From: a virus
Taxonomy: Duplodnaviria; Heunggongvirae; Uroviricota; Caudoviricetes
DNA length: 50,227 nt
Direction: 5' to 3' (one strand)
IMG/VR virus record: IMGVR_UViG_2529292913_000006
How positions within the stretch are numbered: position 1 is the stretch's first letter; the number at the start of each line of letters is the position of its first letter. Below, one piece after another: positions 5,612 to 48,756 of the stretch. A program made the translations under genes and the position numbers. The notes under the pieces are model-generated. The model had not been told where the DNA came from. It did no database searches and saw only the letters and a program-made list of their open reading frames with translations.

Positions 5612-5645
5612 AAAACCCGGCACGGTGGCCGGGACGTTTTATTTC
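5612..5645 (-). terminator. Rho-independent terminator ending the immunity-region operon
   Basis: Stem CCCGGC/GCCGGG (5616-5633) followed on the minus strand by a T-run; sits immediately downstream of the DUF4411 stop. Confidence 0.6.
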
Positions 5646-6151
5646 AAAGAAAAATTATGACTAGCGTATCTTGGAAGAAATTCATATAGTGTTAATGTCT
5701 TAACGCCGTGAGAAGCAGCAGCATCCGGGATCATTATTCTTTTTTTAGGTTTGCCACCGGATGGTTTCTCATGGGTAATAATAGTATATCCATGTGTCAT
5801 CGCATGGGCTATTAAAAAAGCATCTGCTTTTTCATGGCTTGCAAAATCAAACTTTGCCTTTTCGGTAACATCTAATTTAGTTGACCAATTTATTAACTTT
5901 GCATAATTTTCTATTGAACTATGCTCATCTTCGAAGAATGATGATGGTAACTCTTCTTTAATCCATTTACACAATGGATCATCTTTTGCACATAGTTCTT
6001 TTTTTACAGCATTAATGCTATAAATCAGACCATTAATGTGTAAAGCGAGAAGAAAATCCCAAAATATTTTGCAATAATTGAAGTTATATGCAAAGTTTTT
6101 TGCCTCTATGAAGACATTACTATCAATTAAGAATTTTCCATTATGAATCAT
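5639..6151 (-). CDS. DUF4411-family protein (predicted PIN-like nuclease), candidate toxin/effector
   Basis: 170-aa ORF; ATG overlaps the stop of the upstream ImmA-like gene (ATGA coupling); family assignment from memory of sequence features. Confidence 0.75.
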   Translation of the reverse strand: MIHNGKFLIDSNVFIEAKNFAYNFNYCKIFWDFLLALHINGLIYSINAVKKELCAKDDPLCKWIKEELPSSFFEDEHSSIENYAKLINWSTKLDVTEKAKFDFASHEKADAFLIAHAMTHGYTIITHEKPSGGKPKKRIMIPDAAASHGVKTLTLYEFLPRYASHNFSLK

Positions 6152-7287
6152 AGAGATTCTCGTTTTTTATAAAATTCAACAACTGTATCTGCTTTTACAT
6201 TTAGCAGTACGCCTGCTTCCCTTAATGGTAATTGTTGAGACATTGCTTTGGAAATTATTATATTCGTAAGTTTTGGACTGTTACGAACAGGTAATGTGTT
6301 AAAGAAAGAACCACCATTGGATTCTTTTTTGGGCTTATTGTAAGCTTGATCTTTAATTATCTCCAAAGTGTTTCTTTCTATCAAATCTAATTGTAACGCT
6401 TTGATTGCACAAGCGAAATCACTAACCTTAAATAACTTAGAAACCTCTTTTACTCGATAATAATTATTATCGCTGGATGCATTAAGCCAGAAAGATTTGA
6501 AGAGATTATCAGGCATTAAGATTTCAGCAGCAACTTTATTACAAAAAGATTCTATGTTTTTTTCTGTGTCCCACCCAGAGACTCCATCGACTCCAAGCCA
6601 AAGATGAGCCACCTCATGAAATAATGTAAATACCTGCGCAGATAACGCGTCCGAGCTATTTACAAAAATGATCGGAGCAACGCTATCAGATATACAGAAA
6701 CCACGAAACTCTCGCGTGTCAAGTTTTCTTTTATTATTATTACCCACAACACCATTCTTGAAAACTAATACGCCAGTGTCTTCTATTAGTTTTGCCACTT
6801 TAGAAAAATAGCTCTCAAAAGTGACATTTTTTATCTCTTTTTGTATATCAAAATGTATTGTGTTTGCTATGTCTGTAGCAACAACCTTATAATTTAATTT
6901 TCTATTAAATTTAAATTTACCAATAAAATCGAGTGGATCATCATTACCATTTTCTCTTAAATAGTCTTTGTACCACTCAAGTTTATATTCTATATCATAG
7001 TAAACATCAAAAAAATCTTTTCCTAACTCACGGCTATTTATAGCTTGCCTTAAGTCAGGGATCTTGGGTTTGGCTGGAGTTGGTGGCGTTTCAAGAAATA
7101 AAAAACCGAAAGGGATTCCTCCAATTTTTGCCAGTTTTTCTGCTGCGGATTTACTTACCACTCCGTTAAGAAATTTATTAATCTTTTTGGGCATGACTTG
7201 GTCAGCAAGAGTTTCGATAGAAACTCCTTGAGAATTTGCTATCCAATCAATCATCTTCCTAGACAATTGAAATTCAACCGCTGCCAT
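6148..7287 (-). CDS. HTH (XRE-type) plus ImmA/IrrE-family zinc metallopeptidase (COG2856-like)
   Basis: 379 aa; HEXXH motif (FHEVAHLWLG) in central region; N-terminal HTH-like segment; good SD (AGGTGA) upstream. Confidence 0.8.
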   Translation of the reverse strand: MAAVEFQLSRKMIDWIANSQGVSIETLADQVMPKKINKFLNGVVSKSAAEKLAKIGGIPFGFLFLETPPTPAKPKIPDLRQAINSRELGKDFFDVYYDIEYKLEWYKDYLRENGNDDPLDFIGKFKFNRKLNYKVVATDIANTIHFDIQKEIKNVTFESYFSKVAKLIEDTGVLVFKNGVVGNNNKRKLDTREFRGFCISDSVAPIIFVNSSDALSAQVFTLFHEVAHLWLGVDGVSGWDTEKNIESFCNKVAAEILMPDNLFKSFWLNASSDNNYYRVKEVSKLFKVSDFACAIKALQLDLIERNTLEIIKDQAYNKPKKESNGGSFFNTLPVRNSPKLTNIIISKAMSQQLPLREAGVLLNVKADTVVEFYKKRESL

Positions 7288-11249: not shown

Positions 11250-11623
11250 TTTTTCCCTCCAAATACGATGCCCTCTACGTCTTTGGAAGCTTTTTGTGAT
11301 GACCACTCCTCTGAATCAGGTGATTTAATTAAAAATATTGTATCTCCATCAAAAATCGTATTTGTTCCGTAAAAATTTACATTTGATAGATCACCACCAA
11401 AAACCCTCTGCCCACTCGAGGTAATTGCCTCACCTAATTTAGTAAAATTACCTGCAATAGATGATTTTCTTTTTCCACTTCTATTCAAAGTGGCTTTAAT
11501 TACACCACCACCATCCTTAGAGTTAAATAATTGAATGTCCACTCCAGCAGTTGGTTGTATATATTTTGAAAGCTCTTTCTTGAACTTGTTAATATATTTA
11601 TCTTTGTTTTCTTTGTTGGTCAT
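11246..11623 (-). CDS. Hypothetical soluble protein, first gene of the AT-rich cargo pair
   Basis: 125-aa ORF with ATG start, Lys/Gly-rich, no recognisable domain; antisense to the replication module. Confidence 0.55.
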   Translation of the reverse strand: MTNKENKDKYINKFKKELSKYIQPTAGVDIQLFNSKDGGGVIKATLNRSGKRKSSIAGNFTKLGEAITSSGQRVFGGDLSNVNFYGTNTIFDGDTIFLIKSPDSEEWSSQKASKDVEGIVFGGKK

Positions 11624-13155: not shown

Positions 13156-13377
13156 TGTTTGAGTTTTATATGGCAGAACTTCTTCGCCACCGCTGGGGGC
13201 ATCTGCGCTTATATCGTTTCCCCGGTTCTGTTTTGACCGATTACCGAATACTGAAGAATTACGCCAAAACCCTGACAGGAGCAGGAGTATGAAGTCAGAG
13301 ATAACAATCAACTAATACTGTTTTGTTGATTTTTGCTTGTAATTGGCGTTCTGGTCTGATTTTTGTGGAGTAAGTTG

Positions 13378-13761
13378 ATGCGTGATATTCAGATGGTTCT
13401 TGAGCGTTGGGGAGCGTGGGCGGCTAATAATCATGAAGATGTGACCTGGTCGTCCATTGCCGCCGGTTTTAAGGGATTAATTACTTCAAAAGTAAAATCT
13501 CGCCCGCAATGTTGTGACGATGACGCGATGATTATTTGCGGGTGCATGGCCCGTCTGAAAAAGAACAACAGCGATTTGCACGATTTATTAGTAGATTATT
13601 ATGTAGTCGGTATGACATTCATGTCACTGGCAGGTAAGCATTGCTGCTCTGATGGTTATATCGGGAAAAGGTTACAGAAGGCTGAGGGCATAATTGAAGG
13701 GATGTTAATGGCATTAGATATCCGGTTAGAGATGGATATCGTTGTTAATAACTCTAATTAA
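13378..13761 (+). CDS. Q: Late-gene antiterminator Q
   Basis: 127 aa ([22 protein letters not shown]...) recognised as the DLP12 QuuD-type Q; GGAG SD. Confidence 0.8.
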
Positions 13762-13779: not shown

Positions 13780-13812
13780 AAAATTATTAAAAATGGGGCG
13801 TTGCAACGCCCC
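13780..13812 (-). terminator. Rho-independent terminator of the porin gene
   Basis: GGGGCG-TTGCAA-CGCCCC hairpin followed on the minus strand by a T-rich tract. Confidence 0.45.
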
Positions 13813-13949
13813 CAAAAATAAAGGGTAATATATAACAGAAGGTTTATATAGTTAGAAGCAAGGTTGTGCTCCTAAAGGAAGTGGCTTGAGGGAGCCACTT
13901 ATATGTTGGGGAGGCAAAGCCTCCCGCAACATATCTTTTAGTAATCAAA

Positions 13950-15032
13950 TTAGAACTGGTAAACCATACCTACAGCAACGATATCATCGGTAGCAACGCC
14001 AGATGCTTTCGTGAAATCGCTCTTATCAATCAGGTTGATTTTGTAATCAACAAAAGTGGACATATTTTTGTTGAAGTAATAGGTTGCACCTACATCAATA
14101 TATTCAACCAGGTCCTGATCACCCCACGCACCCAAGTCTTTTCCTTTAGATTGCAGGTAAGCAACGGACGGACGCAGACCGAAGTCGAACTGATATTGTG
14201 CAACTACTTCGAAGTTTTGTGCTTTGTTGGCAATATGGTTATTACCAAAAACAGTCATGTTCTGGGTTTCAGAATAGGTGGTAGCCAGATAGATGTTGTT
14301 CGCATCATATTTCAGACCAGCTGCCCATACTTCAGCATTTTGACCAGATGCATTCAGGCTGTTGTTACCGTAGATAACCTGATTATTAGTGCGGTCAGAT
14401 TTAGCATAGGTTGCACCTACACCGAATCCTTCATACTCATAAGTAGTGGAGAAACCGAAACCATCACCATTAGCTTCAGTTACGTCAGTGCGGTCATTTT
14501 TACCCTGATACTGAGCAGCAAAGTTCAGACCATCAACCAGACCAAAGAAGTCGTTGTTACGATAAGTTGCAACACCAGTGGTGCGACCAGTCATGAACAC
14601 ATCTGTTTGGGTCCAGGTATCGCCACCGAATTCTGGCAGAACGTCAGTCCACGCACCGATGTCATATGCTACACCGTAGTTACGGCCGTAATCGATTGAG
14701 CCGTAGTCCCCGAATTTCAGGCCTGCAAATGCAAGACGGGTTTTGTCTTTGGAGGAGCCTTGAGATTCAGCGCGGTTGCCTTTGAATTCATATTCCCACT
14801 GACCGAAACCAGTCAGTTGATCGTTGATTTGGGTTTCACCTTTGAAGCCAAGACGGGCATAAGTAGTATCACCATCATCTGCATCATTAGAGGAGAAGTA
14901 GTGCTTGGCATTAACTTTCCCATATAGATCCAGCTTGTTACTGTCTTTATTATAAATTTCAGCTGCCTGAGCAGACATCGCCATCAGTACTGATGCAGCT
15001 ACAGCAGAAATTGCCACTGTTAATTTTTTCAT
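13950..15032 (-). CDS. nmpC: OmpC/OmpF-family general porin (NmpC/Lc-type, prophage-encoded)
   Basis: 360 aa with signal peptide ([23 protein letters not shown]), porin hallmarks and C-terminal MVYQF; antisense between Q and the lysis cassette. Confidence 0.9.
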
Positions 15033-15462
15033 CGTGAGCCCTTTTTTTTGAACTATTATTAAAAAATGATGTCACTGCGCGATAAATATTCATCTAATCA
15101 ATGTGATTATTTCAAGATGTAAGTTTTGGTTTCTCGTTTGATTTGTGAAGTAGATCTCTATTTTTATCTGAACTTTTTTCTATCGAATCCTATTCATGGC
15201 TCTTGGCTGAATAAAAATAAATCTATTAGCCAATTTATATTAACGGCTGTTATTTATAAGTGCTCTGTAATTTGAAGGTTCAATTTAAATCGGCTAAAAA
15301 TAACGCTGGAAATTATTTGCTGGTTATTTATTGAGATTTGCTTATGTATTTGTAGTGGTGTTTTCAATACTCGGTAGCATTCTCGCAAATATCATTTTGT
15401 GGTTTACGTACGTAAAAAATTGGTTATGCTGTTAAGAGTGGTTACTTCGTCACACAGCTTAA

Positions 15463-15490
15463 ACCCGCCGTCGAGCGGGTTTTTCCATTT
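15463..15490 (+). terminator. Candidate tR'-like terminator upstream of the lysis genes
   Basis: Hairpin ACCCGC-CGTCGA-GCGGGT followed by TTTTCC. Confidence 0.4.
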
Positions 15491-15605
15491 TTTGAGTCTC
15501 GATATTAGCTGATAACCCAATACCTGAGTTATTCACTGACTCCGAGTCTGTTACGTTTCGTAGTATTCCCTCAATTTACACCCGCTTTGTCTGCGAGGTG
15601 GGGTT

Positions 15606-15821
15606 ATGAAATCCATGGATAAGTTAACAACGGGTGTCGCCTATGGCACCTCAGCAGGTAGTGCCGGTTACTGGTTTTTACAGCTGCTCGATAAAGTCAC
15701 GCCCTCACAGTGGGCAGCAATAGGTGTGCTGGGTAGCCTGGTATTTGGCCTGCTGACGTACCTGACAAACCTTTATTTCAAGATTAAAGAAGATAAGCGC
15801 AAGGCTGCGAGAGGTGAATAA
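15606..15821 (+). CDS. S: Class II holin (phage-21 S-type pinholin)
   Basis: 71 aa ([25 protein letters not shown]...); two TM segments; TAATG overlap with the endolysin. Confidence 0.9.
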
Positions 15822-16251
15822 TGCCTCCATCATTACGAAAAGCCGTTGCTGCTGCTATTGGTGGCGGAGCAATTGCTATAGCATCAGTGTTAATCACTGG
15901 CCCAAGTGGTAACGATGGTCTGGAAGGTGTCAGCTACATACCATACAAAGATATTGTTGGTGTATGGACTGTATGTCACGGGCATACAGGAAAAGACATC
16001 ATGCTCGGTAAAACGTATACCAAAGCAGAATGCAAAGCACTCTTGAATAAAGACCTTGCCACTGTCGCCAGACAAATTAACCCGTACATCGAAGTCGATA
16101 TACCGGAAACAACGCGCGGCGCTCTTTACTCATTCGTTTACAACGTGGGTGCTGGCAATTTAGACTGGCCCCCTGAATCTCCAGACAACCAATATCACTT
16201 ATTTAAGTGATAGTCTTAATACTAGTTTTTAGACTAGTCATTGGAGAGCAG

Positions 16252-16617
16252 ATGATTGATGTCTTAGGACCGGAGAAACGCAGACGGCGTACTACACAGG
16301 AAAAGATCGCTATTGTTCAGCAGAGTTTTGAACCGGGAATGACAGTCTCCCTTGTTGCCCGGCAACACGGTGTGGCAGCCAGCCAGTTATTTCTCTGGCG
16401 CAAGCAATACCAGGAGGGAAGTCTTACTGCTGTGGCCGCAGGAGAACAGGTCGTTCCTGCCTCTGAACTTGCTGCCGCCATGAAGCAGATTAAAGAACTC
16501 CAGCGCCTGCTCGGCAAAAAAACGATGGAAAATGAACTCCTTAAAGAAGCCGTTGAATATGGGCGTGCAAAAAAGTGGATAGCGCACGCGCCCTTATTGC
16601 CCGGGGATGGGGAGTAA
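16252..16617 (+). CDS. insC: IS2 transposase OrfA (InsC)
   Basis: 121 aa ([41 protein letters not shown]...); SD GGAGAG. Confidence 0.9.
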
Positions 16618-17480
16618 GCTTAGTCAGCCGTTGTCTCCGGGTGTCGCGTGCGCAGTTGCACGTCATTCTCAGACGAACCGATGACTGGAAAGATGGTCGC
16701 CGCAGCCGTCACTCAGATGATACGGATGTGCTTCTCCGTATACACCATGTTATCGGAGAGCTGCCCACATATGGTTATCGTCGGGTATGGGCGCTGCTTC
16801 GCAGACAGGCCGAACTTGATGGTATGCCTGCGATCAATGCCAAACGTATTTACCGGATCATGCGCCAGAATGCGCTGTTGCTTGAGCGAAAACCCGCTGT
16901 ACCGCCATCGAAACGGGCACATACCGGCAGAGTGGCTGTGAAAGAAAGTAATCAGCGATGGTGCTCTGACGGGTTCGAGTTCCGCTGTGATAACGGAGAA
17001 AAACTGCGAGTCACGTTCGCGCTGGACTGCTGTGACCGTGAGGCACTGCACTGGGCGGTCACTACGGGCGGCTTCAACAGTGAAACAGTACAGGACGTCA
17101 TGCTGGGAGCGGTGGAACGCCGTTTCGGCAACGAGCTTCCGGCGTCTCCAGTAGAGTGGCTGACGGATAATGGTTCATGCTACCGGGCTAATGAAACACG
17201 GCAGTTTGCCCGGATGTTGGGGCTTGAACCGAAGAACACGGCGGTGCGGAGTCCGGAGAGTAACGGCATAGCAGAGAGCTTCGTGAAAACGATAAAGCGT
17301 GACTACATCAGTGTCATGCCCAAACCAGACGGGTTAACGGCAGCAAAGAACCTTGCAGAGGCATTCGAGCATTATAACGAATGGCATCCGCATAGTGCAC
17401 TGGGTTATCGCTCGCCACGGGAATATCTACGGCAGCAAGCCAGTAATGGGTTAAGTGATAACAGGTGTCTGGAAATATAG
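16575..17480 (+). CDS. insD: IS2 transposase OrfB (InsD), DDE integrase core
   Basis: 301 aa overlapping insC in the -1 frame, the usual IS3-family arrangement. Confidence 0.9.
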
Positions 17481-17650
17481 GGGCAAATCCACAATTTCAG
17501 AACATCGACGCTTCTTCGCAAAATAAACCAGGGCGATATCAAAGGCGCATGTGATCAGCTACGTCGCTGGACATATGCTGGCGGTAAGCAATGGAAAGGT
17601 CTCATGACTCGTCGTGAGATTGAGCGTGAAATCTGTTTGTGGGGTCAGCA

Positions 17651-18112
17651 ATGAACAGAGTAACCGCGATTATCTCCGCTCTGGTTATCTGCATCATCGT
17701 CTGCCTGTCATGGGCTGTTAATCATTACCGTGATAACGCCATTACCTACAAAGCCCAGCGCGACAAAAATGCCAGAGAACTGAAGCTGGCGAACGCGGCA
17801 ATTACTGACATGCAGATGCGCCAGCGTGATGTTGCTGCACTGGATGAAAAATACACGAAGGAGTTAGCTAATGCGAAAGCTGAAAATGATGCTCTGCGTG
17901 ATGATGTTGCCGCTGGTCGTCGTCGGTTGCACATCAAAGCAGTCTGTCAGTCAGTGCGTGAAGCCACCACCGCCTCCGGCGTGGATAATGCAGCCTCCCC
18001 CCGACTGGCAGACACCGCTGAACAGGATTATTTCACCCTCAGAGAGAGGCTGATCACTATGCAAAAACAACTGGAAGGAACCCAGAAGTATATTAATGAG
18101 CAGTGCAGATAG
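17651..18112 (+). CDS. Rz: Spanin inner-membrane subunit Rz
   Basis: ATG 17651 overlaps the endolysin stop; N-terminal TM segment then coiled-coil region. Confidence 0.85.
17871..18053 (+). CDS. Rz1: Spanin outer-membrane lipoprotein Rz1 (embedded in Rz, +1 frame)
   Basis: 60 aa with lipobox (LVVVGC) and proline-rich body ([20 protein letters not shown]). Confidence 0.8.
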
Positions 18113-18143: not shown

Positions 18144-18437
18144 TTATTGTGAGCAATACACACGCGCTTCCAGCGGAGTATAAATGCCTAAAGTAATAAA
18201 ACCGAGCAATCCATTTACGAATGTTTGCTGGGTTTCTGTTTTAACAACATTTTCTGCGCCGCCACAAATTTTGGCTGCATCAACAGTTTTCTCCTGTCCA
18301 ATTCCCGAAACGAAGAAGTGATGGGTGATGGTTTCCTTTGGTGTTACTGCTGTCGGTTTGTTTCCAACAGTAAACGTCTGTTGAGCACATCCTGTAATAA
18401 GCATTGCCAGAGCGGCAGAAAACAACATTTTTTTCAT
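18144..18437 (-). CDS. bor: Bor lipoprotein (serum-resistance moron)
   Basis: 97 aa from ATG at 18437 (MKKMLFSAALAMLITGC...); antisense to the lysis genes as in lambda. Confidence 0.85.
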   Translation of the reverse strand: MKKMLFSAALAMLITGCAQQTFTVGNKPTAVTPKETITHHFFVSGIGQEKTVDAAKICGGAENVVKTETQQTFVNGLLGFITLGIYTPLEARVYCSQ

Positions 18438-29322: not shown

Positions 29323-29738
29323 GTTTTGCCCTGAAACTGGCGCGCGAGATGGGGCGACCCGACTGGCGTGCCATGCTTGCCGGGATGTCATCCACGGAGT
29401 ATGCCGACTGGCACCGCTTTTACAGTACCCATTATTTTCATGATGTTCTGCTGGATATGCACTTTTCCGGGCTGACGTACACCGTGCTCAGCCTGTTTTT
29501 CAGCGATCCGGATATGCATCCGCTGGATTTCAGTCTGCTGAACCGGCGTGAGGCTGACGAAGAGCCTGAAGATGATGTGCTGATGCAGAAAGCGGCAGGG
29601 CTTGCCGGAGGCGTTCGTTTTGGCCCGGACGGGAATGAAGTTATCCCCGCTTCCCCGGATGTGGCGGACATGACGGAGGATGACGTAATGCTGATGACAG
29701 TATCAGAAGGGATCGCAGGAGGAGTCCGGTATGGCTGA
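28900..29738 (+). CDS. T: Tail assembly chaperone G-T fusion via programmed -1 frameshift
   Basis: Slippery heptamer GGGAAAG at 29298-29304 near the G 3' end; T frame open from 29304 to 29738. Confidence 0.7.
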
Positions 29739-32310
29739 ACCGGTAGGCGATCTGGTCGTTGATTTAAGTCTGGATGCGGCCAGATTTGACGAGCAGATGG
29801 CCAGAGTCAGGCGTCATTTTTCCGGTACGGAAACTGATGCGAAAAAAACAGCGGCAGTCGTTGAACAGTCGCTGAGCCGACAGGCGCTGGCTGCACAGAA
29901 AGCGGGGATTTCCGTCGGGCAGTATAAAGCCGCCATGCGTATGCTGCCTGCACAGTTCACCGACGTGGCCACGCAGCTTGCAGGCGGGCAAAGTCCGTGG
30001 CTGATCCTGCTGCAACAGGGTGGTCAGGTTAAGGACTCCTTCGGCGGGATGATCCCCATGTTCAGGGGGCTTGCCGGTGCGATCACCCTGCCGATGGTGG
30101 GGGCCACCTCGCTGGCGGTGGCGACCGGTGCGCTGGCGTATGCCTGGTATCAGGGCAACTCAACCCTGTCCGATTTCAACAAAAGGCTGGTCCTTTCCGG
30201 CAATCAGGCGGGACTGACGGCAGATCGTATTCTGGCCCTGTCCAGAGCCGGGCAGGCGGCAGGGCTGACGTTTAACCAGACCAGCGAGTCACTGACGGCG
30301 CTGGTGAATGCCGGTGTGCGTGGTGGTGAGCAGTTTGAGGCGATCAGCCAGAGTGTGGCGCGTTTCTCCTCTGCATCCGGCGTGGAGGTGGACAAGGTCG
30401 CTGAAGCCTTCGGGAAGCTGACCACAGACCCGACGTCGGGACTGACAGCGATGGCACGTCAGTTCCATAACGTGACGGCGGAGCAGATTGCGTATGTTGC
30501 TCAGTTGCAGCGTTCCGGAGATGAAGCCGGGGCATTGCAGGCGGCGAACGAGGCCGCAACGAAAGGGTTTGATGACCAGACCCGCCGCCTGAAAGAGAAC
30601 ATGGGCACGCTGGAGACCTGGGCAGACAGGACAGCACGGGCATTCAAATCCATGTGGGATTCGGTGCTGGATATTGGTCGCCCGGACACTGCCCAGGGAA
30701 TGCTGGAGAAAGCAGAAAAGGCTTTTGATGAGGCGGACAAAAAATGGCAGTGGTATCAGAGCCGGAGCCACCGGCGCGGTAAAACCTCAGCATTTCTTGC
30801 CAATCTCCGGGGAGCATGGGAGGACAGAGCGAATGCGCAACTTGGGCTTTCAGCCGCCACGTTGCAGGCCGATCTTGAAAAGGCCAGAGAGATGGCAGCA
30901 AAGGACTGGGCCGAGTCTGAGGCATCACGGCTGAAATATACCGAAGAGGCGCAGAAGGCTTACGAACGCCTGCAGACGCCGCTGGAGAAATATACCGCCC
31001 GTCAGGAAGAACTGAACAAGGCACTGAAAGACGGGAAAATCCTGCAGGCAGATTACAACACGCTGATGGCGGCGGCGAAAAAGGATTATGAAGCGACGCT
31101 GAAAAAGCCGAAACAGTCCGGCGTGAAAGTGTCTGCGGGCGATCGTCAGGAAGACAGTGCTCATGCTGCCCTGCTGACGCTTCAGGCTGAACTCCGGACG
31201 CTGGAGAAGCATGCCGGAGCAAATGAGAAAATCAGCCAGCAGCGCCGGGATTTGTGGAAGGCGGAGAGTCAGTTCGCGGTACTGGAGGAGGCGGCGCAAC
31301 GTCGCCAGCTGTCCGCACAGGAGAAATCCCTGCTGGCGCATAAAGATGAGACGCTGGAGTACAAACGCCAGCTGGCTGCACTTGGCGACAAGGTTACGTA
31401 TCAGGAGCGCCTGAACGCGCTGGCGCAGCAGGCGGATAAATTCGCACAGCAGCAACGGGCAAAACGGGCCGCCATTGATGCGAAAAGCCGGGGGCTGACT
31501 GACCGGCAGGCAGCGCGGGAAGCCACGGAACAGCGCCTGAAGGAACAGTATGGCGATAATCCGCTGGCGCTGAATAACGTCATGTCAGAGCAGAAAAAGA
31601 CCTGGGCGGCTGAAGACCAGCTTCGCGGGAGCTGGATGGCAGGCCTGACGTCCGGCTGGAGTGAGTGGGAAGAGAGCGCCACGGACAGTATGTCGCAGGT
31701 AAAAAGTGCAGCCACGCAGACCTTTGATGGTATTGCACAGAATATGGCGGCGATGCTGACCGGCAGTGAGCAGAACTGGCGCAGCTTCACCCGTTCCGTG
31801 CTGTCCATGATGACAGAAATTCTGCTTAAGCAGGCAATGGTGGGGATTGTCGGGAGTATCGGCAGCGCCATTGGCGGGGCTGTTGGTGGCGGCGCATCCG
31901 CGTCAGGCGGTACAGCCATTCAGGCCGCTGCGGCGAAATTCCATTTTGCAACCGGAGGATTTACGGGAACCGGCGGCAAATATGAGCCAGCGGGGATTGT
32001 TCACCGTGGTGAATTTGTCTTCACAAAGGAGGCAACCAGCCGGATTGGCGTGGGGAATCTCTACCGGCTGATGCGCGGCTATGCCACCGGTGGTTATGTC
32101 GGTACACCGGGCAGTCTGGCTGACAGCCGATCGCAGGCGTCCGGGACGTTTGAGCAGAATAACCATGTGGTGATTAACAACGACGGCACGAACGGGCAGA
32201 TAGGTCCGGCTGCTCTGAAGGCGGTGTATGACATGGCCCGCAAGGGTGCCCGTGATGAAATTCAGACACAGATGCGTGATGGTGGACTGTTCTCCGGAGG
32301 TGGACGATGA
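29731..32310 (+). CDS. H: Tail tape measure protein H
   Basis: 859 aa, Ala/Gln-rich coiled region; about 6 aa longer than lambda H as recalled. Confidence 0.9.
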   Translation: MAEPVGDLVVDLSLDAARFDEQMARVRRHFSGTETDAKKTAAVVEQSLSRQALAAQKAGISVGQYKAAMRMLPAQFTDVATQLAGGQSPWLILLQQGGQVKDSFGGMIPMFRGLAGAITLPMVGATSLAVATGALAYAWYQGNSTLSDFNKRLVLSGNQAGLTADRILALSRAGQAAGLTFNQTSESLTALVNAGVRGGEQFEAISQSVARFSSASGVEVDKVAEAFGKLTTDPTSGLTAMARQFHNVTAEQIAYVAQLQRSGDEAGALQAANEAATKGFDDQTRRLKENMGTLETWADRTARAFKSMWDSVLDIGRPDTAQGMLEKAEKAFDEADKKWQWYQSRSHRRGKTSAFLANLRGAWEDRANAQLGLSAATLQADLEKAREMAAKDWAESEASRLKYTEEAQKAYERLQTPLEKYTARQEELNKALKDGKILQADYNTLMAAAKKDYEATLKKPKQSGVKVSAGDRQEDSAHAALLTLQAELRTLEKHAGANEKISQQRRDLWKAESQFAVLEEAAQRRQLSAQEKSLLAHKDETLEYKRQLAALGDKVTYQERLNALAQQADKFAQQQRAKRAAIDAKSRGLTDRQAAREATEQRLKEQYGDNPLALNNVMSEQKKTWAAEDQLRGSWMAGLTSGWSEWEESATDSMSQVKSAATQTFDGIAQNMAAMLTGSEQNWRSFTRSVLSMMTEILLKQAMVGIVGSIGSAIGGAVGGGASASGGTAIQAAAAKFHFATGGFTGTGGKYEPAGIVHRGEFVFTKEATSRIGVGNLYRLMRGYATGGYVGTPGSLADSRSQASGTFEQNNHVVINNDGTNGQIGPAALKAVYDMARKGARDEIQTQMRDGGLFSGGGR

Positions 32311-34711: not shown

Positions 34712-37700
34712 ATGGGTAAAGGCAGCAGTAAGGGGCATACCCCGCGCGAAGCAAAGGACAACCTGAAGTCCACGCAGTTGCTGAGTGTGATCGATGCCAT
34801 CAGCGAAGGGCCGATTGAAGGTCCGGTGGATGGATTAAAAAGCGTGCTGCTGAACAGTACACCGGTGCTGGACAGTGAGAGGAATACTAACATCTCCGGT
34901 GTCACGGTGGTGTTCCGGGCAGGTGAGCAGGAACAGACACCGCCGGAGGGATTTGAATCATCAGGTTCCGAGACGGTACTGGGTACGGAAGTGAAATACG
35001 ACACGCCGATCACCCGGACCATCACGTCGGCAAACATTGACCGTCTGCGCTTTACCTTCGGTGTGCAGGCACTGGTGGAAACCACCTCAAAGGGGGACAG
35101 GAATCCGTCGGAAGTCCGCCTGCTGGTTCAGATACAACGTAACGGTGGCTGGGTGACGGAAAAAGACATCACCATTAAGGGCAAAACCACCTCGCAGTAT
35201 CTGGCCTCGGTAGTGGTGGATAATCTGCCGCCGCGCCCGTTCAACATCCGGATGCGCAGGATGACGCCGGACAGCACCACAGACCAGCTGCAGAACAAAA
35301 CGCTCTGGTCGTCATACACCGAAATCATCGATGTGAAACAGTGCTACCCGAACACGGCACTGGTCGGCGTACAGGTGGATTCGGAGCAGTTCGGCAGCCA
35401 GCAGGTGAGCCGTAATTATCATCTTCGCGGGCGTATTCTGCAGGTGCCGTCGAATTATAACCCGCAGACGCGGCAATACAGCGGTATCTGGGACGGAACG
35501 TTTAAACCGGCATACAGCAATAACATGGCCTGGTGTCTGTGGGATATGCTGACCCACCCGCGCTACGGCATGGGTAAACGTCTTGGTGCGGCAGATGTGG
35601 ATAAATGGGCGCTGTATGTCATCGGCCAGTGTTGCGACCAGTCGGTGCCGGACGGTTTTGGCGGCACGGAGCCGCGCATCACCTGTAATGCCTGGCTGAC
35701 CACACAGCGTAAGGCGTGGGATGTTCTCAGTGATTTCTGCTCGGCGATGCGCTGTATGCCGGTATGGAACGGGCAGACGCTGACGTTCGTGCAGGACCGA
35801 CCATCAGATAAGGTGTGGACCTATAACCGCAGTAATGTGGTGATGCCGGATGATGGCGCGCCGTTCCGCTACAGCTTCAGCGCCCTGAAGGACCGCCATA
35901 ATGCCGTTGAGGTGAACTGGATTGACCCGGATAACGGCTGGGAGACGGCGACAGAGCTTGTGGAGGACACGCAGGCCATTGCCCGTTACGGTCGTAACGT
36001 CACGAAGATGGATGCCTTTGGCTGTACCAGCCGGGGGCAGGCACACCGCGCCGGGCTGTGGCTGATTAAAACGGAACTGCTGGAAACGCAGACCGTGGAC
36101 TTCAGCGTGGGTGCCGAAGGGCTTCGCCATGTACCAGGTGATGTCATTGAAATCTGTGATGATGACTATGCGGGGATCAGCACCGGCGGGCGCGTGCTGG
36201 CGGTGAACAGCCAGACCCGGACGCTGACGCTCGACCGTGAAATCACGCTGCCATCCTCCGGTACCACGCTGATAAGCCTGGTTGACGGAAGTGGCAATCC
36301 GGTCAGCGTGGAGGTCCAGTCCGTCACCGACGGCGTGAAGGTAAAAGTGAGCCGTGTTCCTGACGGCGTTGCCGGATACAGCGTGTGGGGGCTGAAGCTG
36401 CCGACGCTGCGCCAGCGCCTGTTCCGCTGCGTGAGTATCCGTGAGAACGATGACGGTACGTATGCCATCACTGCCGTGCAGCATGTACCGGAAAAAGAAG
36501 CCATCGTGGATAACGGGGCGCACTTTGACGGCGACCAGAGCGACACGGTGAATGGTGTCACGCCGCCAGCAGTGCAGCACCTGACTGCCGAAGTCACCGC
36601 AGACAGTGGGGAGTATCAGGTACTGGCCCGCTGGGATACGCCGAAGGTGGTGAAGGGCGTGAGTTTCATGCTTCGCCTGACCGTGGCAGCGGATGACGGC
36701 AGTGAGCGGCTGGTCAGCACAGCCCGGACGGCGGAAACCACATACCGCTTCACACAACTGGCGCTGGGGAACTACAGGCTGACAGTCCGGGCAGTAAATG
36801 CGTGGGGGCAGCAGGGCGATCCGGCATCGGTATCGTTCCGGATTGCCGCACCGGCAGCGCCGTCGCAGATTGAGCTGACACCGGGGTATTTTCAGATAAC
36901 CGCCACGCCGCATCTTGCGGTTTATGATCCGACGGTACAGTTTGAGTTCTGGTTCTCGGAAACGCGGATTACCGATATCAGGCAGGTTGAAACCACAGCC
37001 CGCTACCTTGGCACGGGGCTGTACTGGATAGCCGCCAGTATCAATATCAAACCGGGCCATGATTATTACTTTTATATCCGCAGTGTGAACACCGTTGGCA
37101 AATCGGCATTCGTGGAGGCCGTCGGTCGGGCGAGCGATGATGCGGAAGGTTACCTGGATTTTTTCAAAGGCAAGATAACCGAATCCCATCTCGGTAAAGG
37201 GCTGCTGGAAAAAGTCGACCTGACGGAAGATAACGCCAGCAGACTGGATCAGTTTTCGAAAGAGTGGAAAGACGCCAACGATAAATGGAATGCCATGTGG
37301 GGCGTCAAAATTGAGCAGACCGAAGACGGTAAGCATTATGTCGCGGGACTTGGCCTCAGCATGGAGGATACAGAGGAAGGCAAACTGAGCCAGTTTCTGG
37401 TTGCCGCTAACCGTATCGCGTTTATTGACCCGGCAAACGGGAATGAAACGCCGATGTTTGTGGCGCAGGGCAACCAGATATTCATGAACGAAGTGTTCCT
37501 GAAACGCCTGACGGCCCCCACCATTACCAGTGGTGGAAATCCACCGGTATTTTCCCTGACACCGGACGGAAAGCTGACCGCTAAAAATGCGGATATCAGT
37601 GGCAGTGTGAATGCGAACTCCGGGACGCTCAACAACGTCACGATAAATGAAAACTGTACGATTAAGGGTATGCTGGAGGCGAATCAGGTCAGAGGTGATT

Positions 37701-38125
37701 TTGTTAAAACAGTATCCAAATCATTCCCGAAAAAGGCTGGTACGTGGGGTAACACGGAAACACCAGACGGGACGGTTACAGTCACCATCAGCGATGATCA
37801 TAACTTTGACCGTCAAATCATTATTCCGCCCATTATCTTTAACGGTATAGCGTATGACGATCCGGGAAGTGGTGATAACCCGGGAGGTACAAGGTACACG
37901 GGGTATGGTTTTGAAGTTCGCAAAAACGGCGTATTAATCGCATCCAGAGAAACTAAAGGGGCCATTCCCGGTAGTTACAGTGCGGTTATTGATATGCCGA
38001 GTGGCAGGGGAAGCGTCACTCTGGAGTTTAAGATTTTCCAGAAAGGCAATCAGGGGGCAGGCAATATCACCGACTGTACGGTGATTGTGACCAAAAAGGC
38101 TGCTTCCGGCATCAGTATTCGTTGA
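34712..38125 (+). CDS. J: Central tail fibre / host specificity protein J
   Basis: 1137 aa, lambda J-like over its length. Confidence 0.9.
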
Positions 38126-38195: not shown

Positions 38196-38795
38196 ATGCG
38201 TAAAGTTTGTGCAGCCATTTTGTCCGCAGCCATCTGTCTGGTCGTATCCGGTGCGCCTGCATGGGCGTCTGAACATCAGTCCACGCTGAGCGCGGGGTAT
38301 CTTCATGCCTCGACGAACGTTCCCGGCAGCGATGATCTTAACGGGATTAACGTGAAATACCGTTATGAGTTTACGGACACGCTGGGGATGGTGACGTCAT
38401 TCAGCTATGCAGAAGACAAGAATCGCCAGCTGACTCATTACAGCGATACCCGCTGGCATGAAGATTCCGTGCGTAACCGCTGGTTCAGCGTGATGGCGGG
38501 GCCGTCTGTGCGCGTGAATGAATGGTTCAGCGCGTATGCGATGGCGGGTGTGGCTTACAGCCGTATTTCGACTTTCTCCGGGGATTATCTCCGCGTAACT
38601 GACAACAAGGGGAAAACGCACGAAGTGCTGACCGGAAGTGATGACGGTCGCCGCAGCAACACGTCTCTGGCGTGGGGAGCTGGCGTGCAGTTTAACCCGA
38701 CCGAATCCGTGGCCATTGATGTCGCTTATGAAGGCTCCGGCAGTGGTGACTGGCGCACTGACGGGTTCATCGTGGGTGTTGGTTATAAATTCTGA
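38196..38795 (+). CDS. lom: Outer-membrane protein Lom (Ail/OmpX family moron)
   Basis: 199 aa with signal peptide and C-terminal aromatic residue (GVGYKF). Confidence 0.85.
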   Translation: MRKVCAAILSAAICLVVSGAPAWASEHQSTLSAGYLHASTNVPGSDDLNGINVKYRYEFTDTLGMVTSFSYAEDKNRQLTHYSDTRWHEDSVRNRWFSVMAGPSVRVNEWFSAYAMAGVAYSRISTFSGDYLRVTDNKGKTHEVLTGSDDGRRSNTSLAWGAGVQFNPTESVAIDVAYEGSGSGDWRTDGFIVGVGYKF

Positions 38796-38850: not shown

Positions 38851-38859
38851 GGGGTGAAT

Positions 38860-41800
38860 ATGGCAGTAAAAATTTCAGGTGTACTGAAAGACGGTGCAGG
38901 TAAACCGGTACAGAACTGCACAATCCAGCTGAAAGCAAAACGTAACAGCACCACGGTGGTGGTGAACACGGTGGCATCTGAAAATCCGGATGAAGCAGGG
39001 CGTTACAGCATGGACGTTGAGTACGGTCAGTACAGCGTTATTCTGTTGGTGGAAGGCTTCCCGCCATCGCATGCCGGGACCATCACCGTGTATGAAGATT
39101 CTCAACCCGGTACGCTGAATGATTTTCTCGGTGCCATGACGGAGGATGATGCCCGTCCGGAGGCACTGCGCCGCTTTGAACTGATGGTGGAAGAGGTGGC
39201 GCGTAACGCGTCCGCAGTGGCACAGGACACGGCAGCCGCGAAGAAGTCAGCCAGCGATGCCGGCACATCAGCCCGTGAGGCGGCAACCCATGCGACTGAT
39301 GCTACAGGCTCAGCACGCGCAGCCAGCACGTCAGCCGGACAGGCCGCGTCGTCGGCTCAGTCAGCGTCTTCCAGCGCAGGAACGGCATCAACAAAGGCTA
39401 CTGAAGCATCAAAAAGTGCTGCCGCTGCAGAGTCCTCAAAAAGCGCGGCGGCCACCAGTGCCGGTGCGGCGAAAACGTCAGAAACGAATGCGGCAGCGTC
39501 ACAACAATCAGCCGCCACTTCTGCATCCACCGCGACCACGAAAGCGTCAGAAGCTGCCACCTCAGCCCGGGATGCGGCGGCCTCAAAAGAGGCAGCGAAA
39601 TCATCAGAAACGAACGCATCATCAAGTGCCAGTAGTGCAGCTTCCTCGGCAACGGCGGCAGGAAATTCCGCGAAGGCCGCAAAAACGTCTGAGACGAATG
39701 CGGATAACAGCGCACAGGCGGCAGCGGCCTCACAAACTGCATCGGCAAACTCCGCGACAGCAGCCAAAAAATCAGAAACCAACGCGAAAAATAGCGAGGC
39801 AGCAGCAAAGAGCAGCGAAACAAACGCTAAAGCCAGCGAAACTAATGCTAAATCCAGTGAAACAAACGCGGCGAAATCTGCGGCGGACGCACTTAATTAT
39901 CGCAACCAGGCGCAAGTAATTGTTGGCGATAATATCGGTCTTGGCTCAGCCCCGCGTGATTGTCCTGATATTTCCGGCAACCCATCAGGGTATATCGGAT
40001 TTATGCGCATTATGAGTAATGCAAAAGGCTTTCCATCGATTGCATCCGGTGAAAGCAGTCTTACGGGGTTTATTAGTCAGGTAGATGGAACACCAGCGTA
40101 TACAGGTGTATTTCAGGGATGGGCTACGCGCTCGCTTTATACTTATCGCTGGAATCCGACAATAGGCCCGCAGTGGACGCGTCACGCAAGAAAAGATGCA
40201 GTGGACAGGCTTACTCAACTAACAGGTAATACACGCGTATATTGTCAAAATGCAAGCAAATTTTTTAGTATCTACGATTCAGGAACATGGGGTTATTACG
40301 ATGCAGAGAATAGCGAATGGATTCCGCTTTCGATCGCGGCCGGAGGTACTGGTGCGGCAACTATTGATGGTGCCAGAACGAATCTTGGCTTAGGTAGGAA
40401 CAACAGCCCTCAACTTAACAGTCTATTTCTTGATAGATATAGTGATTCGACCAATACATACACATCTAGTGGAATTCTCCATACAAGACTGTTAGCAACT
40501 GACAGCACTGTGCGTCTTGGTGCTGATATGTATGTTGAGACTTTATCAAATGAGCCAGGTCAATTAACAATAAGGTTTACATACGATGGTTCAACTGGTG
40601 CTTCAAAATATCTAAACCTTAACTCAGAAGGTAATTTAATTGTAGATAGTGCGATACTGAGATCAACGGTTGAAAAACCTTTACAAATAAGGAGCGCTAA
40701 CCCAGCAATAAGATTTAATGAAACAGATCGCCCGGCTAACACGCCTACTTATACTCTCATTGCTAATGCTGGCGACTGGTTTATTCAGAAACGCGATTAT
40801 GATGATGCCGGAAGCGTTAGTAACGCAATTGCATATAATTTCGCAAACGACAGAATTGATGTGCAAAATCTTAAAGCGTCTGGGTTAATTACAGCTAACT
40901 CAGGAATCGCAACATTAACAGGTCATGACTGGAACTCTCAGCATACTGATAACGTCGACAAATTTAGACCAATCGCAGGCAGTACAAACGGCCCGGCAGG
41001 CTCTATGGTTCTTGGCGGCATTCATGTTCAATTTAGTAAAAATTATGCTGTGCAGTTCGGAGGCCGCAATTCCGGTTTTTGGGGAAGAACAATTGAAAAT
41101 GGAACGACGCAGGAATGGAAGAAATTACTAACAGTAGACGATCTCAATTCATCTACCGATCTTGCTGTCAGGTCATTAACCACATCTAACCCGGTAAAAT
41201 CTGGCGGAGGGCGAATTGATGTCCTTGGAAGCACGTCAGACTATAGCAAAATGGATTGCTTTGTACGTGGGTTTGATAGCACCGGTAATTCTCTCGCGTG
41301 GGCGTTGGGTTCATCAGTCGGCGTAAGTAAGATGCTGTCGCTAAAAAATTTCTTTAGCGGAGCTGAGATACTGCTAAATGGTAATGACGGCGCGGTTCAA
41401 CTCAAAACAGGTGCTGTTAACGGGGCTAAAGCGCAGGCGCTCACTATCAACAAGGATGAGGTTAACTCAACTGTTGATTTAACTCTTACAAAACAAACAG
41501 GGACTGGAAATCGTTTTGTTTTACAGAACTTAGGTAATACAGAACTATCATTTGCCGCAAAAGTATGGGGATCAAGTGATCGACAAAACGTTTTTGAGGT
41601 TGGAACGTCTGCTGCGTATCTGTTTTATGCGCAAAAAACGTCAGCAGGCCAGTTGTTTGATGTAAATGGCGCTATTAATTGCACAACGCTGAATCAGTCA
41701 TCAGACCGCGACCTTAAAGACGATATTCTCGTTATCAGCGACGCGACGAAAGCAATCCGTAAAATGAACGGATACACCTACACGCTCAAGGAAAACGGGA

Positions 41801-42135
41801 TGCCTTATGCTGGCGTTATTGCACAGGAAGTAATGGAGGCGATACCAGAAGCTGTGGGATCGTTTACTCATTATGGTGAAGAGTTGCAAGGTCCGACCGT
41901 TGACGGCAACGAGCTACGCGAAGAAACTCGCTATCTTAATGTTGACTACTCCGCCGTGACGGGTTTACTTGTTCAGGTCGCCCGTGAAACAGATGATCGC
42001 GTTACCGCGCTGGAAGAGGAAAACACAACGCTACGTCAAAATCTGGCAACAGCAGGCACCCGGATCAGCACTCTGGAAAATCAGGTAAGCGAACTGGTTG
42101 CACTTGTCCGGCAGTTAACAGGAAGCGAACATTGA
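38860..42135 (+). CDS. stf: Side tail fibre: lambda Stf N-terminus fused to a distal region ending in an S74-type intramolecular chaperone domain
   Basis: ATG 38860 (MAVKISGVLKDGAGKPVQNCTIQLKAK...); Ala/Ser-rich SETNA repeats at about 39230-39900; C-terminal SDRDLKDDI... coiled-coil tail. Confidence 0.8.
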   Translation: MAVKISGVLKDGAGKPVQNCTIQLKAKRNSTTVVVNTVASENPDEAGRYSMDVEYGQYSVILLVEGFPPSHAGTITVYEDSQPGTLNDFLGAMTEDDARPEALRRFELMVEEVARNASAVAQDTAAAKKSASDAGTSAREAATHATDATGSARAASTSAGQAASSAQSASSSAGTASTKATEASKSAAAAESSKSAAATSAGAAKTSETNAAASQQSAATSASTATTKASEAATSARDAAASKEAAKSSETNASSSASSAASSATAAGNSAKAAKTSETNADNSAQAAAASQTASANSATAAKKSETNAKNSEAAAKSSETNAKASETNAKSSETNAAKSAADALNYRNQAQVIVGDNIGLGSAPRDCPDISGNPSGYIGFMRIMSNAKGFPSIASGESSLTGFISQVDGTPAYTGVFQGWATRSLYTYRWNPTIGPQWTRHARKDAVDRLTQLTGNTRVYCQNASKFFSIYDSGTWGYYDAENSEWIPLSIAAGGTGAATIDGARTNLGLGRNNSPQLNSLFLDRYSDSTNTYTSSGILHTRLLATDSTVRLGADMYVETLSNEPGQLTIRFTYDGSTGASKYLNLNSEGNLIVDSAILRSTVEKPLQIRSANPAIRFNETDRPANTPTYTLIANAGDWFIQKRDYDDAGSVSNAIAYNFANDRIDVQNLKASGLITANSGIATLTGHDWNSQHTDNVDKFRPIAGSTNGPAGSMVLGGIHVQFSKNYAVQFGGRNSGFWGRTIENGTTQEWKKLLTVDDLNSSTDLAVRSLTTSNPVKSGGGRIDVLGSTSDYSKMDCFVRGFDSTGNSLAWALGSSVGVSKMLSLKNFFSGAEILLNGNDGAVQLKTGAVNGAKAQALTINKDEVNSTVDLTLTKQTGTGNRFVLQNLGNTELSFAAKVWGSSDRQNVFEVGTSAAYLFYAQKTSAGQLFDVNGAINCTTLNQSSDRDLKDDILVISDATKAIRKMNGYTYTLKENGMPYAGVIAQEVMEAIPEAVGSFTHYGEELQGPTVDGNELREETRYLNVDYSAVTGLLVQVARETDDRVTALEEENTTLRQNLATAGTRISTLENQVSELVALVRQLTGSEH

Positions 42136-42610: not shown

Positions 42611-43699
42611 CTATTCGCTATAAGTTAATGTTGGTTTTGAAAGTCTTTTGGATATTGTTTTTCCGATATTAATGAATGGAGTTTCAATATATTTATAAAT
42701 AAAGAATGATAAGAACAAGCTAAGAGCAATAATGAATGAAAACTTAGAGAACCCAGGTTTTTCATAAAGCGGAATGAAATCCTTAAAATTAATTAAAAAT
42801 AGCATTACTATCGCATGGGATAAATACAGAGAGTAAGAGATATCACCTAGCTTACTGAGTATTTTATTTTCCCTTAATCCGAAGTTAACTTCATAAAGTA
42901 AAACTCCCGTAATTATGGAGGCTGCCCACAATCCGAAGTTTAAAGGGCCATGACCAAATCTGAATTGATAAAAATATGAGCAAACACCAAATGAAACCAA
43001 AAGGAATGATATCGCCTTTGCGTTTTTTATATATTTAAATTTTCTGTGTATTATATACAGAAACATCCCATAAACGAATTCTAACAGCATGGGTGATGAC
43101 ATTAAGTTTAGAAAGCCAATATGCCAATGACCTGTATCACCAATCGTAAACTTACTTGATAGAGAAAGGCTGTTGGAAAATTTCAACTGTATGAGAAGTA
43201 GCGGGACTATCAATGCAATAACTGATATTAATAATCTGTTTTTATGACTCAGCGATATTGCAAGCATAAAAATGAAATAAAAATAGACTTCAAAGGTTAA
43301 TGTCCATGCTGGATAAAGCACGTTGTATCCGAAGAATGGCGCTTCTGAATAATAGTCCAGGTGAAGCAGAAACAATGAACGCAATAATTCACTTTCGGTG
43401 AAGACTGGGTTCAATAAAAAGAATAAGATTGTGCAAATGAAAAATACAGGGTAAATCCTGAAAAAACGCCTGGTCATAAAGTTAATAGGGGAATTTGTTT
43501 CTTTTTTTTGACTCGATAACATTATTATAAATCCACTTATAATAAAAAACAGATCAACCCCAAAACCACCACTAATAAACAATAAATCACCTAGATCTTT
43601 TTGTGCGTAAACTTCATTTAGGTATTGTTTATTGTGATATGCAACAACGAGTAATGCTGCTACACCTCGCAAATAGTGAATTGATTTTACCTTCTTCAT
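42611..43699 (-). CDS. Acyltransferase family 3 integral membrane protein (O-antigen/LPS acetyltransferase-like)
   Basis: 362 aa, about 10 predicted TM segments, conserved N-terminal region (YLRGVAALLVVAYH...FFIISGF); low GC; antisense. Confidence 0.8.
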   Translation of the reverse strand: MKKVKSIHYLRGVAALLVVAYHNKQYLNEVYAQKDLGDLLFISGGFGVDLFFIISGFIIMLSSQKKETNSPINFMTRRFFRIYPVFFICTILFFLLNPVFTESELLRSLFLLHLDYYSEAPFFGYNVLYPAWTLTFEVYFYFIFMLAISLSHKNRLLISVIALIVPLLLIQLKFSNSLSLSSKFTIGDTGHWHIGFLNLMSSPMLLEFVYGMFLYIIHRKFKYIKNAKAISFLLVSFGVCSYFYQFRFGHGPLNFGLWAASIITGVLLYEVNFGLRENKILSKLGDISYSLYLSHAIVMLFLINFKDFIPLYEKPGFSKFSFIIALSLFLSFFIYKYIETPFINIGKTISKRLSKPTLTYSE

Positions 43700-46719: not shown

Positions 46720-47837
46720 CGACAATAACCGGGAGTGAGCAACATACAGCATCACGTATTCCCATGCGAAATATCTGGATGCTGATGCTGTACGCTTCAG
46801 ATCTGTTTCGTCAGTTAGGGCGCAATCAGATCGCAGTAGAAGATAACCCAGCAGAAATCCCCGACCTGGTGGCGACAATCCTCCTTCATGAGATTACGCT
46901 GCGCCGACGTCGCAATTTAAATATGGGATACCAAACTTGTCATGCGGCCCTGAACCGGGTGAGAGGGCGCATTGACATACTGTATACTGCCAGTCATCAA
47001 CTACTGGAACGGGGACAGGTTGCCTGCCATTTTCAAGACATAACCCTCAACACCCCCCGAAATCGCTATGTTCGCTGTGCGTTAGAACGTCTGGCCTCAA
47101 TCATAGTGAAACCGTCTTTGGCGGCAGATTGCCATTTTATGGCAATATCACTTCGCCGTGAGGGGATAAATGGAGGATATCCTGCCCCCCACGAATTACC
47201 CTCAGTGTGGCGTTTTGGACGCCATGATGCCGCAGATAAACCGATGGTCGATGCCGCACGATTAGCTTTTGAACTGCTGATGCCGACCGAAGATCAAGGC
47301 CAATATCTTTTACCTGCGCCCTCAAATAACCTTTACTGGATGAGAAGACTATTTGAAAAAGGTATCGCTGGCTTATATCGTGTACACCTTGCCAAAACAA
47401 CTTGGCAGGTCTCTGCAGGGAAAGAGCTGAAATGGGCGTTGAGCGATCAAAGTGCAGGTAGTGCAGAGATTTTCCCGACAATGAAGTCAGACATTATTCT
47501 GGAACACAAGACTGCCCAGCGGCGTATTATTATCGATACCAAATTTAATTCGATTCTGACAAAGGGTTGGCATCGGGAGCAATCACTACGTAATGGCTAT
47601 ATTTATCAGCTATATACCTACCTTAGAACACAGGAGAACAAGACGGATCCGCTTTCGCTCAATGCCGCTGGTCTTCTACTTCATCCAGCTGTTGGCTATA
47701 TGCTTAATGAGTATGTTGTCACTCAGGGACATAAGATCCATTTTGCTACAGTAGATATGACGGTAGATGCTAAAGCAATTAAAAAACAATTGCTGGCAAT
47801 AGCCCATGATTGTGCAGGAGTCGCGGTTGATGACTAA
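46716..47837 (+). CDS. McrC-like PD-(D/E)xK nuclease partner
   Basis: 373 aa; ATGA overlap with upstream gene; candidate catalytic motif SDIILEH...IIIDTKF. Confidence 0.7.
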   Translation: MTTITGSEQHTASRIPMRNIWMLMLYASDLFRQLGRNQIAVEDNPAEIPDLVATILLHEITLRRRRNLNMGYQTCHAALNRVRGRIDILYTASHQLLERGQVACHFQDITLNTPRNRYVRCALERLASIIVKPSLAADCHFMAISLRREGINGGYPAPHELPSVWRFGRHDAADKPMVDAARLAFELLMPTEDQGQYLLPAPSNNLYWMRRLFEKGIAGLYRVHLAKTTWQVSAGKELKWALSDQSAGSAEIFPTMKSDIILEHKTAQRRIIIDTKFNSILTKGWHREQSLRNGYIYQLYTYLRTQENKTDPLSLNAAGLLLHPAVGYMLNEYVVTQGHKIHFATVDMTVDAKAIKKQLLAIAHDCAGVAVDD

Positions 47838-48539: not shown

Positions 48540-48701
48540 TTACGCCATATGGGTTGGACTGAAGCGGCTGACCTGATTGTTAAAGGTATGGAAGGCGCAA
48601 TCAATGCCAAGACCGTAACCTATGACTTCGAACGTCTGATGGAAGGCGCTAAATTGCTGAAATGTTCAGAGTTTGGTGACGCGATCATCAAGAATATGTA
48701 A
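48540..48701 (+). pseudogene. icd: icd 3'-terminal fragment at attR (icdC-type remnant)
   Basis: Frame encodes [53 protein letters not shown], the C-terminus of isocitrate dehydrogenase, with no upstream gene body; AT-rich phage DNA to the left. Confidence 0.85.
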
Positions 48702-48724
48702 TCTCTCCATGTGTTAAATATTGA

Positions 48725-48756
48725 AACGGGCGTATAACACGCCCGTTGTTTTATTT
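48725..48756 (+). terminator. icd rho-independent terminator
   Basis: AACGGGCGT-ATAACA-CGCCCGTT followed by a T-run. Confidence 0.65.

Follow-up and report, generated by a model that had tools for sequence, protein, structure and literature searches.

The gene at positions 13950–15032 (minus strand) of the window, by which we mean the whole 50,227-nt stretch of viral DNA analysed here, encodes an intact porin of the NmpC/Lc type. With a probability that we put at roughly 85%, this allele is a classical lysogenic-conversion moron, of the kind represented by nmpC of DLP12 and lc of PA-2, that swaps the major porin of the lysogen and most likely protects it from OmpC-dependent phages. The window contains a lambdoid prophage that is inserted at icd and has the full lambdoid order of genes, int through tail fibres. 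A near-identical prophage (99.9–100% identity) is present in the porcine strain CV839-06, for which RefSeq annotates the corresponding block as quuD, 'porin OmpC', essD, rrrD (split by an IS3-family element), rzpD, and iss. One IS1 copy of CV839-06 (L001 17411–18179) is missing from the window (11478–11487), and the tape-measure (29731–32310) and J (34712–38125) reading frames are intact in the window, whereas RefSeq flags internal stops in both in CV839-06 (compared loci L001 and L006). The window therefore derives either from a distinct though related genome or from an assembly that has been corrected.

The porin reading frame is uninterrupted from ATG to TAA and encodes 360 amino acids. The Pfam model Porin_1 covers residues 29–360 (model positions 1–337 of 337, E = 3e-153), and residues 24–360 align with the mature chains of solved OmpC, OmpK36, OmpK37, OmpF, and PhoE (E values down to 2e-137). 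Because the mature chains of these solved porins start at query residue 24, residues 1–23 (14964–15032, minus strand) are predicted to form a signal peptide that is cleaved after AQA23 and before AEIYNK. We aligned the window porin with OmpC, OmpF, PhoE, and OmpN of K-12, OmpD of Salmonella, and two proteins named NmpC or Lc. Across these eight porins, the AAE at the signal-peptide junction (A23, A24, E25), the L3 motif PEFGGD (P133, E134, F135, G136, G137, D138), and the C-terminal YQF (Y358, Q359, F360), which makes phenylalanine the last residue, are invariant. Full-length alignment to solved trimeric porins, combined with 62–68% identity to the K-12 porins, suggests that the product is a trimeric 16-strand β-barrel with a water-filled pore. 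All 69 full-coverage copies of the gene in viral contigs are intact; they comprise 14 protein alleles, and dN/dS of these copies versus the window allele is 0.02–0.19, with dS of up to 0.62. The integrity of 69 of 69 copies and these low dN/dS values show that the reading frame does not exist by chance and point to a maintained, functional gene. The first-pass annotation had described an intact OmpC-family porin encoded antisense between Q and the holin; the full-length frame, the complete Porin_1 domain, and membership of the OmpC/OmpF/PhoE family bear this out, as do the flanking plus-strand genes, Q at 13378–13761 and the holin at 15606–15821.

The same description survives at the level of the family but not if it is taken to mean OmpC proper, as the protein falls into the NmpC/Lc/OmpD subgroup. 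Its identity is 91% to the NmpC/Lc type, 82% to OmpD, 68% to OmpN, 65% to PhoE, 64% to OmpC of K-12, and 62% to OmpF. It scores 518 bits against the NCBIfam 'porin OmpC' subfamily, for which the cut-off is 484, but does not reach the equivalog cut-offs that NCBIfam sets for PhoE and OmpF. With OmpC, OmpF, PhoE, and OmpN, the window porin has in common the Pfam family and three conserved elements (the signal-peptide junction, PEFGGD in L3, and the C-terminal YQF), but it is only 62–68% identical to them and is prophage-borne. Salmonella enterica OmpD is alike over its full length at 82% identity and belongs to the same subgroup; it differs in being a chromosomal core porin rather than phage cargo and in lacking an ipeX context. 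The exact window protein represents a cluster of 2741 member sequences; its neighbours go by the names NmpC precursor, porin protein LC, or DLP12 porin when ~90% identical and by Salmonella OmpD when ~80% identical. Compared to the window porin, the 365-aa NmpC/Lc type differs at ~9% of residues and is 5 residues longer. These differences are concentrated in three short stretches, including FGN..NHIANK, that align with variable surface-loop regions of the other porins and that, given the general structure of porins, we take to be loops L4–L6. With 2741 cluster members, the 360-aa loop variant is common.

Downstream of the stop codon, the porin mRNA has a structured 3′ UTR of 164 nt (13786–13949, minus strand) that is 97% identical to the sequence 3′ of nmpC in DLP12 of K-12 and in phage 434B. 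This region folds as a row of stable hairpins (−63.2 kcal/mol, z = −9.2) and is strongly conserved, with 23 variants in 69 viral copies that differ at few positions, too few for covariation. The terminal hairpin of the fold is an intrinsic terminator (13812–13795, minus strand), GGGGCGTTGCAACGCCCC then AUUUUUAAUAAUUUUU, which would end the porin/ipeX transcript; it has seven pairs, six of them G–C, a loop of 4, and the tail ATTTTTAATA. An independent terminator scan recovered this same minus-strand hairpin, which had been proposed as the gene's own terminator; it lies 138 nt past the porin stop codon, not directly after it. The terminator is unidirectional and acts on leftward transcription only, because the plus-strand side then reads CAAAAA.

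By sequence, this structured 3′ UTR is the ipeX region. No Rfam family matched anywhere in the window at gathering thresholds, and since Rfam lacks a model for ipeX, we identified the RNA from its sequence identity to DLP12 and from published descriptions. In DLP12, ipeX is a 167-nt RNA that arises from the phage porin promoter within the porin transcript and controls OmpC production without obvious complementarity (PMC12197685), and it has been named among the repressors of ompC mRNA (PMC3333887). In a crude calculation of ipeX pairing with RNAduplex on whole sequences, shuffles (200 per target) paired as well as the real sequence 8 times for ompC, 29 times for ompF, and 126 times for phoE, which is no convincing sign of pairing with ompC. 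An OmpC-lowering RNA gives a concrete and already known mechanism to the earlier suggestion that the porin, together with lom and bor, could alter the receptor landscape of the lysogen.

The order quuD–porin (antisense)–essD–rrrD–rzpD–bor is common to the window and DLP12. Q is 100% identical to QuuD of K-12, the 3′ UTR with ipeX and the terminator is 97% identical, and Q, the 3′ UTR, and the 3′ end of the porin gene together are 98.4% identical in DNA, whereas the remaining porin coding region is just 92.7% identical. The two prophages also differ in that nmpC of K-12 is broken by IS5 near codon 346, at a site corresponding to window positions of about 13992–14007, whereas the window copy is intact, and in that the window prophage lies at icd, not argU. 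Phage 434B shares the block order quuD–nmpC–essD–rrrD–rzpD–borD. Proteins that bear the name 'outer membrane porin protein LC' are ~90% identical to the window porin. Phage PA-2 follows a like logic, with a phage porin and a downstream ipeX sequence that lowers OmpC, which is PA-2's own receptor; for the window prophage, OmpC use is deduced only from its 434-type J. Castillo-Keller et al. (2006) reportedly dealt with PA-2 lc and ipeX and also covered an effect on OmpF. By identity, position, orientation, ipeX, and terminator, the window porin belongs to the NmpC/Lc prophage group. An NmpC/Lc porin in the Q–S interval, the ipeX RNA, bor, and lom are all known biology that has been described for decades, and we claim no novelty for them because the arrangement is textbook material (DLP12, PA-2, 434B).

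The left neighbour of the porin unit is an antiterminator Q of the QuuD type (127 aa; 13378–13761, plus strand, with a start at 13363 or 13378; Phage_antitermQ, E = 4e-53) with a distant match to Q21 structures. The right edge of the interval is a conserved plus-strand block at 15430–15487, which contains a hairpin (15461–15482) followed by a T-run, was detected by terminator scan and conservation, and was recognised through comparison with SfII and cdtI. DLP12, SfII, and cdtI all carry a conserved version of this block immediately before their lysis genes, and at least 120 viral contigs contain its exact 49-nt core; none of the records examined annotates the block. We infer that it is part of the late-promoter leader, as a candidate pR′-proximal leader and terminator. 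If this reading holds, late transcription starts beyond the 5′ end of the porin gene and therefore does not run antisense through it. By eye, TTTACG-N16-TATGCT (15404–15431, plus strand) is a candidate promoter with 8 of 12 matches just upstream of the conserved leader. For the DLP12 late promoter, the published position is limited to '-121 to +650', without primer sequences (PMC7918800). A comparison with Lambda_2E9 for shared qut/pR′ sequence revealed no non-coding similarity.

The first gene of the lysis cassette is a phage-21-type holin, EssD (15606–15821, plus strand; Phage_holin_2_1, E = 2e-35; RefSeq essD in the near-identical genome). It is followed by rrrD (15821–17654), a SAR-type endolysin gene split at about 16160–17492 by an IS3-family element with orfA at 16207–16617 and orfB at 16575–17480; the lysozyme reading frame ends at 129 aa and matches positions 3–83 of 125 of its model. 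With rrrD split in this way, the prophage is probably lysis-defective, while porin, bor, and lom are intact.

A Q of the PF06530 family lies upstream of the leader element in all 99 contigs with a visible Q, ending 0.86–2.96 kb before it. In 65 of these contigs a QuuD-type Q is accompanied by the porin; the other 34 have a Q relative of 45–52% identity and different cargo between Q and the leader, and the principal reading frames of this non-porin cargo are antisense in every class sampled. Loci L107, L109, L122, L129, L133, L017, and L050 are porin-less relatives with antisense cargo in the interval. The porin ATG lies 394–398 nt from the late-leader element in porin-bearing contigs, with the exception of L100, in which an insertion increases this distance to 1172 nt. 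Lambda_2E9 resembles the window in Q (89% identical in DNA) and in the holin (83%) but has genes for a Blc lipocalin and a YbgA-like protein in place of the porin. Absence from relatives that keep the same flanks (Lambda_2E9 and the 34 contigs) and a terminator of its own are as expected of a moron, and we read the porin unit as occupying a variable cargo slot between Q and the late-leader element.

PADLOC matches in the slot cargo include the HNH nuclease-like PDC-M68A, PDC-S20, and PDC-M53A, as well as a HEC-04/ATPase-Toprim-like ATPase paired with a C5 (cytosine) methyltransferase, which suggests that the Q–leader interval is a defence hot spot. We propose, tentatively and with rather less than even confidence, that in phages with this Q family the interval is a dedicated, exchangeable slot for antisense cargo in which porin–ipeX serves as a receptor-swap defence module alternative to anti-phage genes, and that the 360-aa L4–L6 variant could be the outcome of selection for escape from phages whose receptors are NmpC/Lc-type porins. 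This cargo-slot view is the sole angle of our analysis that is even mildly new.

The C-terminal 250 aa of the prophage's J protein (37373–38122; gene 34712–38125) are 94.8% identical to J of phage 434, 98.8% identical to that of mEp460, and 58% identical to that of λ. The J protein of 434 targets OmpC (PMC12502783), and this similarity to 434 suggests that the receptor of the window prophage is OmpC, not LamB. We propose that the porin gene works as a self-contained leftward unit, consisting of an AT-rich 5′ flank, the 360-aa precursor, the 164-nt ipeX 3′ UTR, and the intrinsic terminator, that would be transcribed antisense to the phage late genes. The lysogen would export the porin to the outer membrane, where trimers of the 16-strand barrel would act as general diffusion pores, and the ipeX part of the porin transcript would lower synthesis of host OmpC and also of OmpF, so that the net outcome would be an exchange of the major porin. 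If its own porin takes the place of OmpC, a prophage that itself adsorbs to OmpC would leave the lysogen poorly infected by related phages and by other OmpC-dependent phages. Superinfection protection is a likely consequence of the porin swap because the J tip is of the 434 type, whose receptor is OmpC. This receptor-swap logic has long been proposed for PA-2. Permeability and surface antigenicity would be expected to change as well.

Exclusion is the selective benefit that we favour for the porin swap, but it is also possible, if short of an even chance, that the gene is kept mainly for host physiology, for instance because it aids the uptake of solutes, the tolerance of heat or stress, or the variation of antigens in the gut, and that phage exclusion is incidental. 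NmpC has been tied to heat resistance in strain AW1.7, and nmpC is induced at host temperature in uropathogenic E. coli (UPEC): in CFT073, growth at 37°C strongly favours the two nmpC genes and 23°C favours ompC, in both RNA and protein (PMC12890032). The differences between the window porin and the NmpC/Lc type are concentrated in regions that align with surface loops L4–L6, and the block persists even though an IS has broken the endolysin gene, which may mean that the phage, as a virus, no longer benefits. Against a mainly physiological role stand the physical coupling of the porin to the OmpC-lowering ipeX, its co-occurrence with a 434-type, presumably OmpC-using J, and the presence of defence-like genes in the same slot of related phages. 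The physiological and phage-exclusion readings are compatible and not mutually exclusive, and effects on permeability, heat tolerance, and antigenicity may matter as much as exclusion.

The AT-rich 5′ flank (15033–15429, minus strand, identified by composition) must hold the promoter and 5′ UTR of the porin gene, and the ~400 nt upstream of the gene are 29–31% G+C. Neither a porin promoter nor pR′ turned up in a σ70 scan of both strands of 15033–15605. A CRP-like site at 15144–15159 (2 mismatches) was dropped as evidence, as the window has 20 such sites compared to 23 expected by chance. The lack of a consensus promoter in 15033–15429 and the low G+C content of the upstream DNA would fit a porin that is intact and yet essentially silent in the lysogen, for example through silencing at its AT-rich promoter region, and that has little effect on the cell surface unless activated. 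The intact nmpC of E. coli B is reportedly a 'quiescent' porin gene, to go by the title of Prilipov et al. (1998), and the thermoregulation reported for nmpC also speaks for this reading. We nonetheless consider a silent porin unlikely. Strong purifying selection, with 69 of 69 copies intact, argues against it, as does the expression of prophage porin genes measured in CFT073 and in LF82, where expression of a prophage NmpC moron stands 10-fold above the local prophage background (PMC9928086). That the porin is likewise expressed in the lysogen of this strain is what we infer.

Counted at a query coverage of at least 80%, the Q–porin–holin block is carried by almost half of the complete E. coli genomes (2393 of 5426) and by 36 phage records, several of which describe induced phages. 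The suggestion that the gene is a chromosomal ompC paralogue merely adjoining phage genes has in its favour that RefSeq names it simply 'porin OmpC', but the gene lies inside the Q–S interval of a complete lambdoid order and is only 64% identical to K-12 OmpC, and the presence of the block in these 36 sequenced phage genomes, induced phages included, and in at least 65 viral contigs refutes this reading, leaving it a negligible probability.

The porin is not the only envelope-related cargo of the prophage. The first-pass annotation had grouped it with bor and lom as three outer-membrane proteins, and both of these genes are indeed present as complete reading frames with full domains. The bor/iss lipoprotein gene (18144–18437, minus strand) encodes 97 aa, of which residues 19–95 match positions 1–75 of 75 of Lambda_Bor (PF06291, E = 6e-31); it has the lipobox LITGC at residues 13–17, is named Iss by RefSeq, and resembles λ Bor in its 92% identity and in its antisense position after Rz. 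The lom gene (38196–38795, plus strand) encodes an outer-membrane β-barrel of the Ail/Lom family (199 aa; Ail_Lom, PF06316, positions 1–199 of 199, E = 9e-124) and lies, as in λ, between J and the side tail-fibre gene, but is just 45% identical to λ Lom. That side tail-fibre gene (38854–42135, plus strand; 1093 aa) is annotated in the near-identical genome with a C-terminal S74 peptidase (intramolecular chaperone) domain, unlike λ Stf. On the 3′ side of the tail-fibre genes, a 362-aa reading frame at 42611–43699 (minus strand), assigned to an acyltransferase family in the annotation of the near-identical genome, may be an O-antigen-modifying conversion gene and thus a fourth envelope-altering cargo.

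Other features lie elsewhere in the window. A pair of genes for a DUF4411 protein and an ImmA/IrrE metallopeptidase (5639–7287, minus strand) adjoins the XRE-type repressor in the immunity region and may be a toxin–antitoxin or defence-type module. An AAA ATPase and McrC pair (44737–47837, plus strand) resembles an McrBC-type restriction system. After it comes a 212-nt duplicate of the 3′ end of icd (48543–48754, 98.6% identical), which identifies the right attachment site as well as an e14-like remnant located past the tail genes.

As a discovery, the porin unit carries little weight; its value lies in annotation. The gene that RefSeq labels 'porin OmpC' is NmpC/Lc-type prophage cargo with an unannotated regulatory 3′ UTR. 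The comparison of cargo between Q and the late leader offers a modest lead for mapping defence hot spots in lambdoid phages. For the bacterium, the porin unit may change porin-dependent antibiotic uptake, vaccine-relevant antigens, and phage susceptibility in a porcine ETEC-like background.
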